Source of the DNA: a plasmid
Sequence record: NZ_CP019224.1
Strand: one strand, 5' to 3'
Length of the DNA: 64,000 bases
A model generated the notes under the pieces. The model saw nothing but the letters and a program-made list of their open reading frames with translations. It had not been told where the DNA came from and did not search any database. This document shows, one piece after another, positions 33,917 to 40,544 of this stretch (its first letter is position 1; each line of letters opens with the position of its first letter). The translations under genes and the position numbers were made by a program.

Positions 33917-35986
33917 TCAATGTGTGGGACGGCCCTTGACAGGGGTGCTGTCCTCGTCGACGTCGACTCTGTCGGGCTGTGGGCGCGTACTGGGGCGCTG
34001 CGGCTGGTGTGGCGGAGAGGCTGGGTTGGCGCGCTGGTGCGTGGGGCGCTCGGGGCTGCCGCCCCGGCCGGGGGCTGGGGTTGGCGCTGGTTGGGCGCCG
34101 GCAGGCGCGGCGGGACCACCTTGGGGCGAAGAGTTGGGGGCGCCGGCCGGGGGGTTGGGTTGCTGTGCGCCAGTAGAGCTGTGGTCGCGGTGGCGGCGCT
34201 GAGCGACGTGACCGGCGACGGCGGCCGCAGCGACGGCTTCGGGTGCCACGACGGCGGTGGCGGCCTCACCGGCCATCATGGCACCATCGGCGGCGGCCGC
34301 AGTCCCGCCGGCGGTGGAGGAGGCCGCCACGTCAGCGGCGGGGGCCTGTGGTGCTGGGGTTTGTTGAGAGGCGCGCCCGGGTGAGGGTGGGCGTCCGCCG
34401 GGGGGGCGGCCGTTGACTGGGGGGCCGGTGAGGGGCTGGTCGGGCTCGTCGGGGGTATCGGAGGAGTCGTCGTCGGGTTTTTTGGCCCATGGTGCGCGCG
34501 AGTTGAGGTCTTTGGCTCGGTCGTAGGCGTCTTGTCCGCGTTGGTATCCTTCGCGGCCGCGGTGGACGAGTTCACTGATGGTGTGGGTGAAATCTTGGCG
34601 GGTGTGATCGCCGAGTTCGCGTTTGAGCCACCAGAACACGCCGATGGCGACGGCGGAGATGATGGCGATCATGAATAGCCGCGCGAGTGGGTGGGTCATG
34701 CCGACCTGGTCGGCGTAGCCGCCGCGGGCGCCCATTTTGAGCACGATCATGGCCGCGATGGAGATGTAGGTGGTGTAGGCGAATACCAGGGCGGCGTGTT
34801 TGAAGAACATGGTGATGCGCCGCGCGGCGCGCCGGCGCGGGTGGCCGTGGATCATGGCGGGTGCGGCGGCCACGATGGACATCAGGGCGTTGACGAAGGC
34901 CGCGCAGCATACCATGACGTAGCTGTAGGTGACGTAGCAGACGAAGAACGCGAAGACTGCGCCCAGGAGGCCGTAGCAGGCGCCCAGGGCGAGGTTGGCG
35001 CCGCTGAGGTGTTGGGCGAAGGACAGGGCTTGGGGTGCGCCGCAGGAGGCCATGGCGTGGGCGGGTGCTGCGAGGTCGCCGGCGTTGGGTGGGGTGAGCA
35101 TGGCGGCGGTGTAGGCGCCACCGCAGGTGCCGATGTTATCGACGGTGGTGCCGAAGTTCATCAGCTGTAACGGCATTCGCAAGGTGGTGTCGGCGATGAG
35201 GCCGGTGAGGTGTTGGAGCTGGGCCTGGCCGCCGCCGCTAGTGATGGTGCCGTTGGCGAAGGCTGCTTGGGAGATGCTGAAGCCGAGGTTGCGTCCTTGG
35301 GTCAGTAGCCCGTTTTCGCTGTAGAGGTCGGACAGCGGGTCGCGGGTGAGCACGATGCCCAGGATGCCAACGGCGATGGTGGACACCATGATTCCGGCGC
35401 CGAAGCCTTTGCGACCATGCCACAGGATGTGGAAGGCGCCGACTGAGACACCGAGCAGTAGGCAGATGGGGAAGACCCACAGGTCGGCAAGGATCACCCG
35501 GATTGTCTCGAAGACCGGCCGAAACCAGGTGGCCAGCCACACCAGCCACGTGTTGGACATGGCGAACCGCAGCAGCCACAGCGACATGGCGATCATGAAG
35601 ATGTAGATGCCGGCTTGGGCTTGCAGCAGTTCGATCACGCCTTCATGGGTCATGCCGGTGGTGACGGCGTTGGCCAGCCAGCGGGCCCAGCTCGACGGGT
35701 CCCAGCTGAGGCCAGGTCCTGCTTTGGTGATGGCTTCGGTGGTGCTGACCACGGACAGGTAGTAGTTGCCCACGGGGACGCCGTGGCTGTCGGTGACCCC
35801 GGTCCAGTTCAGTGCACCGGCCAGGGTGGAGGCGGCCGCGGGCGGGGCGGCTCCGATCGCGGCGGCGGCCAGGGTGTGGGTGATGAACCAGAAGGTGGTG
35901 ACGCGCCGCAGGCGTGGGCGGGTGGCCATCTGGTAGCCGAGGTATTCGGCGGCGCGCTGGCCGAATGTTGTTGGCGGGGTGGTCAT
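33917..35986 (-). CDS. large polytopic membrane protein, candidate VirB6/TrbL-like mating-channel component
   Basis: 689 aa. At least 8 hydrophobic helices across the first 450 aa. A long Pro/Ala/Gln-rich hydrophilic C-terminal tail. The ATGA start overlaps the stop of the downstream VirB4-like fragment. The position within the conjugation gene block supports the call. Confidence 0.5.
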   Translation of the reverse strand: MTTPPTTFGQRAAEYLGYQMATRPRLRRVTTFWFITHTLAAAAIGAAPPAAASTLAGALNWTGVTDSHGVPVGNYYLSVVSTTEAITKAGPGLSWDPSSWARWLANAVTTGMTHEGVIELLQAQAGIYIFMIAMSLWLLRFAMSNTWLVWLATWFRPVFETIRVILADLWVFPICLLLGVSVGAFHILWHGRKGFGAGIMVSTIAVGILGIVLTRDPLSDLYSENGLLTQGRNLGFSISQAAFANGTITSGGGQAQLQHLTGLIADTTLRMPLQLMNFGTTVDNIGTCGGAYTAAMLTPPNAGDLAAPAHAMASCGAPQALSFAQHLSGANLALGACYGLLGAVFAFFVCYVTYSYVMVCCAAFVNALMSIVAAAPAMIHGHPRRRAARRITMFFKHAALVFAYTTYISIAAMIVLKMGARGGYADQVGMTHPLARLFMIAIISAVAIGVFWWLKRELGDHTRQDFTHTISELVHRGREGYQRGQDAYDRAKDLNSRAPWAKKPDDDSSDTPDEPDQPLTGPPVNGRPPGGRPPSPGRASQQTPAPQAPAADVAASSTAGGTAAAADGAMMAGEAATAVVAPEAVAAAAVAGHVAQRRHRDHSSTGAQQPNPPAGAPNSSPQGGPAAPAGAQPAPTPAPGRGGSPERPTHQRANPASPPHQPQRPSTRPQPDRVDVDEDSTPVKGRPTH

Positions 35987-38984: not shown

Positions 38985-40544
38985 TCAAACGCAAAACATG
39001 AGTTCTTCGCGGAGGCGTTTGACGCTGTAGTCCAGGGTGTGTTGATCGGGGGCGCCGACTGCGATGACGAACGCGGCATGTAGGGGCCGTTCGTCGATGT
39101 TGGCTTCGAGCTGGCGGTTGTATTCGGCGAGTTGGCGCCAGGTGGCGATGAGTTCGGCGTCGCCGTTGCGGACGTCGCGGCGCTGGGTGAATTGGTCGTC
39201 GATGTTGCCTTTGGCGCGGTCGTTGCGCACGAATTCCATTTCGCGGCTTACGGTTACGAGGTTGACGGCGAAGTCGAAGGTGGCGCCGGTGTCGAGGTCG
39301 TCGAGGGCTTGCAGAAATTCTGATCCGGGGAACACGATGCCGGCCTTGGGCATGTCGACGACTGGCAGGATCGCTTGGTAGCTGTCGGGATACGCGCCTT
39401 CGGGACTGGAGACTCGCAGGGTTTTGCTCCACGAGGGGATGCGCCGCAGGCCGGCGGTCCACGCGAGCAGCGCCGCGGCGGACAAGACGGCGAGGGGGGC
39501 TGCTAGCGGGAGTCCGACCAGGAGGCCGGCCGCGATGGCAGCGGCGGCGAGTCCGGCTGCGATGAGATGCAGCGGCAGGAGGCGGCCGCCGCGATGGTGT
39601 TGGTCGCCGTCGTCGAAAACCGCGGCGGGCAGCGCGGCGGTGTCGAGCTGGTCTGTGGTAGCCCGGCGGGGTAGGGGGTTGTTGAACACTCCGCGCCAAG
39701 CGTTGTGCCGCCAGAACCAGTCGATCATGTCCGCACTGACCGGTTGGGGCGCGAACTGCTCGGGAATGGCGGTGATGATGTCGTGGGCCAGGCGCTGGTA
39801 GGCGGCCACCGAGTCGTCGGAGTCTTTGTCGCGCCCGATTACCCAGTCGCGCAGTTTGGCGGCTTGACCTGCAGGGCTGTGCCCGGCGCGGCCGGCGTCG
39901 ACGGGCATGGCCAGCCAGTAGATGCGGGTGCGGGGGTGGTGGTTCTTGAGGACGGGCTTCATCCGCTGGCAGGAGTTGACCCAAGCGGGCTTGTCGCGGT
40001 GACCATCAACCATGGCGCGGAGCAGCTGGCGCTGGTTTTGGGGTACGGAGAGCCCGAATACCCAGGTGCCGGCGGGGACTTCGCGGGCCAGGGCTTGGTG
40101 ACTGTCGGCCACGCCGGTGCGGCGTTTGGTGGATTGCAGGTAGTAGGGCAATCCGCTGATCAGGTAGTGGGCGTAGATACCGTGGGCGGTGAAGCTCAGG
40201 TTGCCGATGACGGTGCGCGGCGGTGTCAGCAGCGGGTCGCTGGCGGTGCTGGCCAGGGTGGGGCGCAGGGCGCGCCAGGCGCTGACAATGCGGAAGCGCA
40301 GGTTGGGCCGCTGACGGGGGATCAGTGCCGCGGCCCCGGCGGTGGCGGCGGTGAGCAGCAGGCCGTAGATCAAGATGGCGCGGGCGTGCCCGGAATCCAG
40401 AGCGAGGATGGTGAGGGCGACAGTGAGGGCGGTGCCGCCGTAGAGGCTGACCGCCACCCAGAGCCGCAGCGGCTTTTTGAACAGGATGTCGGTGTAGACC
40501 GGGGTGTCGTGGACGCCTTTGAATAGTTGCGCTGATTCGGTCAC
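38985..40544 (-). pseudogene. VirB4/TrbE-like conjugation ATPase, N-terminal portion (separated from C-terminal portion by IS3 insertion)
   Basis: 519-aa ORF. It ends with 4 IS-encoded codons (MFCV, then stop) exactly at the IS right end. N-terminal TM helices (LRLWVAVSLYGGTALTVALTILAL; a second around LLPLHLIAAGLAAAAIAAGLLVGL). Joining it to the C-terminal fragment after removing the IS plus one TSD (1580 bp) restores one continuous frame of about 993 aa. Confidence 0.65.

Follow-up and report, generated by a model that had tools for sequence, protein, structure and literature searches.

The stretch analysed here is a 64,000-nt window of plasmid DNA (record NZ_CP019224.1), and its subject is a minus-strand gene for a VirB4-like conjugation ATPase that an insertion sequence (IS) has cut in two. 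Two minus-strand open reading frames (ORFs) of 519 amino acids (aa; 38985..40544) and 430 aa (35983..37275) are separated by a 110-aa ORF and a long integrase-like frame, both within a 1,576-bp IS at 37423–38998. The terminal inverted repeats of this IS begin with TG, are imperfect, match at 40 of their first 49 positions and give the element TG...CA ends: on the plus strand the left end reads TGACGTGTGTTTGAGTTAATGAGCC from 37423, and the right end, at 38998, is the reverse complement of TGTTTTGCGTTTGACTTAATGAGCC. A repeat search returned arms of 45 nt that are 84% complementary, and the core of the repeat occurs in only two places within the window, against none expected in shuffled sequence, so the window holds a single copy. 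The direct repeat TGAG flanks the element on both sides as a 4-bp target duplication (Table 1). The ends were also fixed independently, because identical copies elsewhere align over exactly the same interval. In a megablast search of PLSDB, five 39.9-kb plasmids of Mycobacterium chimaera match the middle of the locus only, four of them at 100% identity over exactly query positions 1524–3099, that is, window 37423–38998, with the match in the fifth cut by the start of its record; 16 further mycobacterial plasmids match both flanks and not the middle.

The reading frames record the same event. The upstream ORF comprises 515 native codons followed by Met-Phe-Cys-Val and a stop supplied by the IS, the methionine codon being assembled from the A that ends the target duplication and the TG that begins the element. 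The downstream frame is open from 35986 to 37437, 15 nt into the IS, and its first start codon is the GTG at 37275. In silico removal of 37423–39002 (1,580 bp, the IS plus one copy of the duplication, a length of 2 mod 3) yields a 2,982-nt ORF of 993 codons with a terminal stop only, which across the junction runs from ...YSVKRLREEL into TQSGQIAIRHYRG... (...KRLREEL/TQSGQIA..., the slash marking the junction). An earlier note on this window, written from the letters alone, had described TG-initiated imperfect repeats with a TGAG duplication, an upstream ORF ending in four IS-encoded codons, a downstream ORF open back to the IS boundary and a frame of ~993 aa regained on excision of 1580 bp, and each of these descriptions is borne out by the coordinates and translations above. 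The locus is a precise IS insertion, with target duplication, into a once-continuous gene. In the reconstructed protein, Walker A (GALGYGKS) occupies residues 611–618, Walker B (LIVLEEA) residues 839–845, and hydrophobic segments residues 28–49, 56–76 and 320–366. The insertion point, codon 515/516, falls within a helix predicted by the structure model described below (residues 501–519), the last helix before the ATPase domain.

Uninterrupted forms of this gene are close at hand. The reconstructed protein equals, residue for residue (100%), a protein annotated as 'MULTISPECIES: ATP-binding protein [Mycobacterium]' and present on 512 contigs (P0113 in our set). Over 6.3–8.9 kb spanning the site, the excised window is matched at 100.000% DNA identity by three contigs that lack the IS (L012, L013 and L014), and two more depart from it slightly (one substitution/three gaps). 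Intact orthologues are annotated as single genes on plasmids pMyong1 (NC_020275.1, from M. intracellulare subsp. yongonense 05-1390; WP_015388865, 1,005 aa) and pRAW (WP_038582401, 993 aa); the reconstruction aligns collinearly with the former at 98.6% identity and with the latter at 86.7%, and the junction residues are conserved. Because the IS-free siblings are identical in DNA across the site, the insertion is precise and evolutionarily very young. The recent date proposed in the earlier note thus survives comparison with siblings whose flanks carry zero substitutions, with one amendment: the allele is not private to this plasmid copy.

The disrupted allele is common to many sequenced isolates of one subspecies. 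Its 519-aa product (UCN07067.1/WP_226069301.1; LFT51_28470, on a plasmid) occurs on 70 contigs in 73 blocks of the sequence collection, the longest of 97,268 bp, and the 430-aa C-terminal ORF has its own entry, WP_226069300.1. All records with the disrupted allele are named M. intracellulare or its subspecies chimaera, and the host of the window's plasmid is very probably M. intracellulare subsp. chimaera; the identical intact allele, by comparison, is multi-species and fills 548 blocks. A VirB4 that is naturally made from two genes, or whose split is programmed, was considered and rejected, the uninterrupted identical allele being the common form by these block counts. No PLSDB record carries the disrupted allele, and short-read contigs such as NTFW01000024 end inside the IS. 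A search of the accessible literature found no earlier description of this insertion; the role of plasmids in M. chimaera outbreak strains has been stated to be unknown (PMC11877719).

The inserted element has the layout of a two-frame transposase gene. Its orfA encodes an HTH_28 domain and its orfB the domains rve and rve_3, at a frame offset of −1. Five codons ahead of the orfA stop, in the zero frame, is a G_GGA_AAA heptamer, and slippage there would, by sequence arithmetic, give a predicted OrfAB fusion of 475 aa. The earlier note had placed the element in the IS3 family. The architecture upholds that placement (a helix-turn-helix OrfA, an rve OrfB in the −1 frame, the heptamer, TG..CA ends and duplications of 4–5 bp), but the profile models fall short of it: the modelled OrfAB fusion scores best against the NCBIfam IS3 model NF033516, at 121 bits (OrfB alone at 104), below the cut-off of 160. 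The IS481 model NF033577 follows closely at 107 bits (cut-off 224), and RefSeq names the two ORFs by domain only. We file the element as IS3-like on its predicted architecture. Its 1,576 bp lie at the long end of the length range of that family.

Copies of the element elsewhere indicate how recently it has moved. OrfA is found in 179 collection blocks. We examined seven further loci representing six distinct insertion sites (among L016–L021, L015 and L002). The M. chimaera chromosome CP084592 supplies three of these sites, one of which recurs in CP045963; the others are on the 39.9-kb plasmid and on two JAON01 contigs. The copy is full length, 1,576 bp with 0 mismatches, at six of the seven loci, and L021 (JAON01000018) holds a variant of 1,574 bp. 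At six of the loci (five distinct sites) the element stands between perfect duplications, 4 or 5 bp long and unrelated in sequence; the duplication at L017 is imperfect. By these copies and their target duplications, the element is a genuine, multicopy IS that has been expanding recently and is probably still active, and the pattern points to a very recent burst of transposition. Neither the left junction nor the 49-nt IS end was found when the GTDB species representatives were scanned for exact matches.

VirB4 is the central ATPase that energises type IV secretion, and several kinds of evidence place the interrupted gene in its family. Residues 601–879 of the reconstructed protein match Pfam AAA_10 (59.5 bits, cut-off 27.5); NCBIfam returns weak, sub-threshold matches, all to VirB4-type conjugation ATPases (Mbov_0397 family, TcpF, CD1110, TraC and VirB4_CagE); and a sequence search of the PDB gave a single match, VirB4 of Thermoanaerobacter pseudethanolicus (4AG5). 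A structure model was computed with AF2 on an orthologue 87% identical to the reconstructed sequence (P0011) rather than on that sequence itself, using an alignment of 52 full-length homologues from a large-database search, and has a mean predicted local distance difference test score (pLDDT) of 84.1 and a predicted template modelling score (pTM) of 0.80. When this model was compared with the PDB by Foldseek, TrwK/VirB4 of R388 took ranks 1 to 13 (E 7e-20 to 2e-15, ~930 alignment columns, both domains), followed by the ATPase domain of 4AG5 (E 4e-9), with HerA-type ATPases only from E 5e-9. Around the gene lie a TcpC-like (VirB8-like) gene at 41438–42430, a gene for a VirD4/TraG-type coupling protein at 45040–46482 and a MobF relaxase gene at 53317–59232. 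The modelled two-domain VirB4 fold and the conjugation-gene context together show a VirB4-type identity, distant but real. The VirB4-like label given in the earlier note is thus supported from several sides, by AAA_10, by the 4AG5 and TrwK matches and by the pRAW orthologue, and the stop-free reconstructed frame joins both halves into one protein.

How the insertion would act can be outlined from these parts. The 1,576-bp IS3-like element transposed into codon 515/516 of the virB4-like gene, duplicating TGAG. The gene would now give a 519-aa, membrane-anchored N-terminal fragment ending in MFCV. The complete domain with the Walker A and B motifs is left orphaned: its frame offers no start codon ahead of residue 564, and a ribosome-binding site is not evident. 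The insertion may also lower expression of the overlapping downstream gene for a 689-aa membrane protein. The ATG of that gene overlaps the virB4 stop, and for this reason the predicted gene is probably translationally coupled to virB4 and exposed to polar effects of the insertion. A scan of 35900–41300 for promoters and terminators found no promoters and six terminator-like sites against 3.7 ± 2.1 in shuffled sequence, nothing above expectation, and says nothing on polarity. Neither Pfam nor NCBIfam yields a match for the 689-aa protein, which is conserved and from its position may be a channel component of VirB6/TcpH-like type.

Because VirB4 energises type IV secretion and the 87%-identical pRAW orthologue is indispensable, the plasmid is predicted to be unable to transfer itself. 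That orthologue, mmarE11p_00780 of pRAW from M. marinum E11, was named virB4-like by Ummels et al. 2014 (PMC4173767). With Himar1 inserted at bp 90304 of pRAW, which we compute to be codon ~591, no transconjugants arose, and the virB4-like gene alone restored transfer (PMC4173767). On this comparison, loss of VirB4 function in the window's plasmid, and hence of its self-transfer, appears highly probable, and the transfer defect predicted in the earlier note is strongly supported. The plasmid would then be inherited vertically while keeping its ESX-P, coupling-protein, TcpC-like and relaxase genes, and we infer that its spread would be vertical only. The single-species distribution of the disrupted allele fits such a loss of horizontal spread.

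Several points weigh against this reading, and most of them feed its main rival, in which the gene is disrupted and the plasmid nevertheless transfers, either with VirB4 supplied in trans by a co-resident plasmid or by reassembly of the N-terminal fragment with an ATPase domain made from GTG 37275. The functional claim rests on an orthologue in M. marinum, and the narrow host distribution could just as well stem from the insertion being young. Since a virB4-like null of pRAW can be complemented in trans, a co-resident plasmid with a compatible VirB4 could in principle rescue transfer, and M. chimaera strains do carry several plasmids, some with their own ESX-P/type IV secretion system (T4SS) loci, including one of 322 kb (PMC12803027). 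Yet no close paralogue from the assembly of that 322-kb plasmid stands among the top tblastn matches, and the close (87%) orthologues in PLSDB belong to the CP015268 and CP015279 assemblies, not to the CP0845xx series, which holds the chromosome CP084592 with its identical IS copies and from which, we infer, the window originates. For reassembly, the break does fall at a domain boundary, in helix 501–519 of the model, and the ORF for the ATPase domain is intact and oriented like the IS genes, so that the orphan domain could be translated from GTG 37275 after read-through from the IS and the protein reconstituted from its split parts. The pRAW insertion at codon ~591 likewise parts the N-terminal domain from Walker A, however, and is null; no ribosome-binding site or promoter-like signal precedes GTG 37275, residues 516–563 would be lost, and the disrupted allele has not been seen outside one species. 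We consider rescue of either kind quite unlikely. Reversible, phase-variable excision was likewise rejected as unlikely: IS3-family elements transpose by copy-out-paste-in, and the donor copy stays in place.

Two further explanations, an assembly artefact and an identity other than VirB4, are essentially excluded. Short-read assemblies break at multicopy repeats, and this IS is multicopy, with contig NTFW01000024 ending inside it; a mis-assembly across the repeated element or a chimeric contig might in that way feign a split in a gene that is really intact. The product of the left junction, however, recurs on all the contigs and blocks counted above, the 97,268-bp record included, the right-hand fragment is separately annotated in NCBI records, and the 4-bp duplication is perfect at both junctions, with excision restoring the natural sequence exactly, which leaves an artefact with a negligible chance. 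The insertion would say nothing about conjugation if the gene encoded some other HerA/FtsK-type ATPase, such as a HerA of a defence system or an ESX accessory ATPase. The curated models TIGR00929 (VirB4_CagE), TIGR02746 (TraC), NF045971 (CD1110) and NF052333 (TcpF) all score far below their cut-offs (15.9–39.5 bits against 325–1100), which counts against a VirB4 assignment, and the fold search also brings up structures of HerA, DndH and TdpAB, at E 1e-9 to 1e-6. The TrwK/VirB4 matches are nonetheless ten orders of magnitude better and span both domains, the gene sits amid TcpC-like and VirD4-like genes, and the pRAW orthologue is experimentally required for conjugation; another ATPase is very improbable. 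Because the curated VirB4-family models score so low, the protein is best placed in a divergent actinobacterial VirB4 branch outside those models, for which 'VirB4-like' is the safe label.

Table 1. Features of the interrupted virB4-like locus in window coordinates
Feature	Position	Strand	Remarks
virB4-like gene, 5′ fragment	39000..40544	-	Native codons 1-515; N-terminal domain with transmembrane (TM) helices 28-49 and 56-76 and TM hairpin 320-366; product WP_226069301.1/UCN07067.1
Annotated truncated ORF	to 38985	-	519 aa; ends in IS-derived MFCV
Target-site duplication, copy beside transposase-proximal IS end	38999..39002		TGAG on plus strand, CTCA on minus strand
IS3-like insertion sequence	37423..38998	-	1,576 bp; transposase genes in same direction as virB4; ends set by 100% identical copies
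Terminal inverted repeat, upstream end in transposase orientation	38950..38998		5′-TGTTTTGCGTTTGACTTAATGAGCC... on minus strand
IS orfA	38581..38913	-	110 aa; helix-turn-helix (HTH_28)
Candidate -1 slippery heptamer G_GGA_AAA near orfA end	38596..38602	-	From sequence and frame arithmetic
IS orfB	37487..38590	-	367 aa as annotated; DDE integrase core (rve, rve_3); -1 frame relative to orfA
Terminal inverted repeat, downstream end	37423..37471		5′-TGACGTGTGTTTGAGTTAATGAGCC... on plus strand
Target-site duplication, second copy	37419..37422		TGAG
virB4-like gene, 3′ fragment	35983..37419	-	Native codons 516-993 and stop; whole P-loop ATPase domain
Walker A codons 611-618	37111-37134	-	Within 3′ fragment
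Walker B codons 839-845	36430-36450	-	Within 3′ fragment
430-aa ORF from GTG 37275	35983..37275	-	WP_226069300.1; without obvious ribosome-binding site
689-aa polytopic membrane protein gene	33917..35986	-	Downstream of virB4; ATG overlaps virB4 stop (ATGA)
Codon-897 site hit in sibling plasmid (L008)	36274..36276		Same IS end, same orientation; window intact here

Further lesions were found in the same gene. A 900-aa protein (P0001; Logan, ERR13148613) agrees with the reconstruction up to and including residue 897, after which it ends in FCV. Apart from one base, its contig (L008) equals the excised window over 8,691 nt, and it is uninterrupted at the window's insertion site; at its positions 8690–8719 it joins the same IS end, in the same orientation, to codon 897. 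By this join, codon 897 is the site of a second insertion of this IS in the gene, independent of the one in the window. In a contig of a draft M. riyadhense assembly (L009; GCA_054600655.1), the virB4-like gene is cut at codon 539 (contig positions 5630–5632) and directly joined to esx WXG100/PPE genes. Compared with the window, a deletion of ~13.3 kb has taken out the ATPase domain, the 689-aa gene, eccA, eccE, mycP, eccD and espG; the assembly being a draft, the join could be a mis-join. Short or long homologues (P0098–P0108) look like frameshifted metagenome or long-read calls and were not counted as disruptions.

These extra lesions were found by searching with the VirB4-like protein itself, which makes their recurrence suggestive only and supports no claim of enrichment. 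The gene takes up 3.1% of the ~95.7-kb IS-free backbone. That the virB4-like gene is a recurrent target of inactivation in this plasmid lineage, with three independent lesions (at codon 515/516 and at codon 897 by the same IS on near-identical backbones, and in the lost 3′ half of the M. riyadhense gene), seems rather unlikely to us. If true, it could mean selection to switch off conjugation as costly or risky, with the ESX-P type VII system retained for another role, and domestication of a conjugative plasmid in a lineage that includes M. chimaera associated with heater-cooler units. A pronounced target preference of the IS is the alternative to selection.

The rest of the plasmid was set against pMyong1, with which the window is collinear in reverse orientation and whose gene order recurs in pRAW. 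By gene content the plasmid is of pRAW/pMyong1 type: it has a type VII locus, ESX-P, together with a type-IV-like locus in reduced form and a MobF (TraA/MobF) relaxase. As a check of integrity, each of 46 pMyong1 proteins was sought in the window as one open frame. Only the VirB4-like protein is split, into residues 1–515 and 515–992 against pMyong1; all other T4SS-like genes (the virB4/tcpC/virD4 block), the ESX-P genes and the relaxase gene (1,952 aa) are full length at 92–100% identity. The earlier note had claimed that the ESX system is intact and that there is no other decay: the full-length T4SS-like, ESX-P and relaxase genes support it, and other mobile elements at 7.8–11.5 kb qualify it.

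Those elements are a TnpB/OrfB_IS605-type ORF (579 aa; 7822–9561, minus strand) and a transposase of the IS256/Mutator family (451 aa; 10174–11529, plus strand). Both lie in a 5.4-kb variable stretch without a pMyong1 counterpart, where only the final 32 residues of the pMyong1 gene OEM_RS25620 have a match. Conversely, at the window joins near ~46482 and ~49675, pMyong1 has a TnpB element (pMyong1 37358–38542) and a ~28-kb cargo block (5966–34051, with dsz, P450 and MMPL genes) that are absent from the window; the window's plasmid is a leaner relative of pMyong1. In window 61959–64000, sequences of ~340–420 bp match four to six places in pMyong1 104–112 kb at 80–88% identity, which looks like a dispersed intergenic repeat family in a leading-region-like part of the plasmid.

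Inactivation of a transfer gene by an insertion is an ordinary, textbook event, and this is a new, well-resolved instance of it with nothing conceptually new. Its interest lies in the setting. To our knowledge, no other plasmid family is known to depend for conjugation on a type IV-like together with a type VII system. Disrupted and intact alleles that are otherwise identical offer a natural isogenic pair for asking what ESX-P does in the absence of transfer. In public annotation the halves stand as two ordinary genes (WP_226069301.1, 'hypothetical protein', and WP_226069300.1, 'ATP-binding protein') and not as a pseudogene, so the plasmid can look transfer-proficient in automated surveys. The junctions are, in addition, ready-made lineage markers.

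Among known systems, the window's plasmid was set beside its own siblings. The IS-free plasmids that carry P0113 (for example, CP045076.1) are 99.9–100% identical to the window across the site, and pMyong1 shares a collinear backbone with ESX-P, T4SS-like and relaxase blocks at 96–98% identity; in all of these, unlike in the window, the virB4-like gene is intact. The element shares with the IS3 family an orfA with a helix-turn-helix and an orfB with a DDE rve core in 0/−1 frames, an X_XXY_YYZ heptamer, TG...CA repeats and short duplications; it differs in its sub-threshold NCBIfam IS3 score, nearly equalled by that of IS481, and in a duplication that is 4 or 5 bp long among copies.

Among VirB4 proteins of known structure, TrwK/VirB4 of R388 (PDB 7O41, 7O43 and 8RTD) and 4AG5 are the best structural matches and have the same two-domain fold with a Walker A/B ATPase domain, although sequence identity is only 10–16%. 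In the mycobacterial protein, two additional TM helices stand at the N terminus and a TM hairpin interrupts the N-terminal domain. Unlike TrwK and 4AG5, this protein acts together with a type VII system (PMC4173767). Its N-terminal TM helices (residues 28–76, window 40317–40463) occupy the position of a fused VirB3, and the hairpin (residues 320–366) is encoded at 39447–39587. No VirB3 homologue was reported for pRAW (PMC4173767), and a VirB3–VirB4 fusion is conceivable.

The nearest functional precedent is the virB4-like gene of pRAW itself, mmarE11p_00780, which encodes a protein of the same length, 993 aa, at 86.7% identity and has the same neighbours. In the pRAW mutant, as in the window, a mobile element separates the N-terminal domain from Walker A, at codon ~591 there and at codon 515/516 here. 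The pRAW lesion is a laboratory mariner transposon with a measured phenotype, whereas the one described here is a natural IS3-like insertion, known from sequence and fixed in the lineage sampled.

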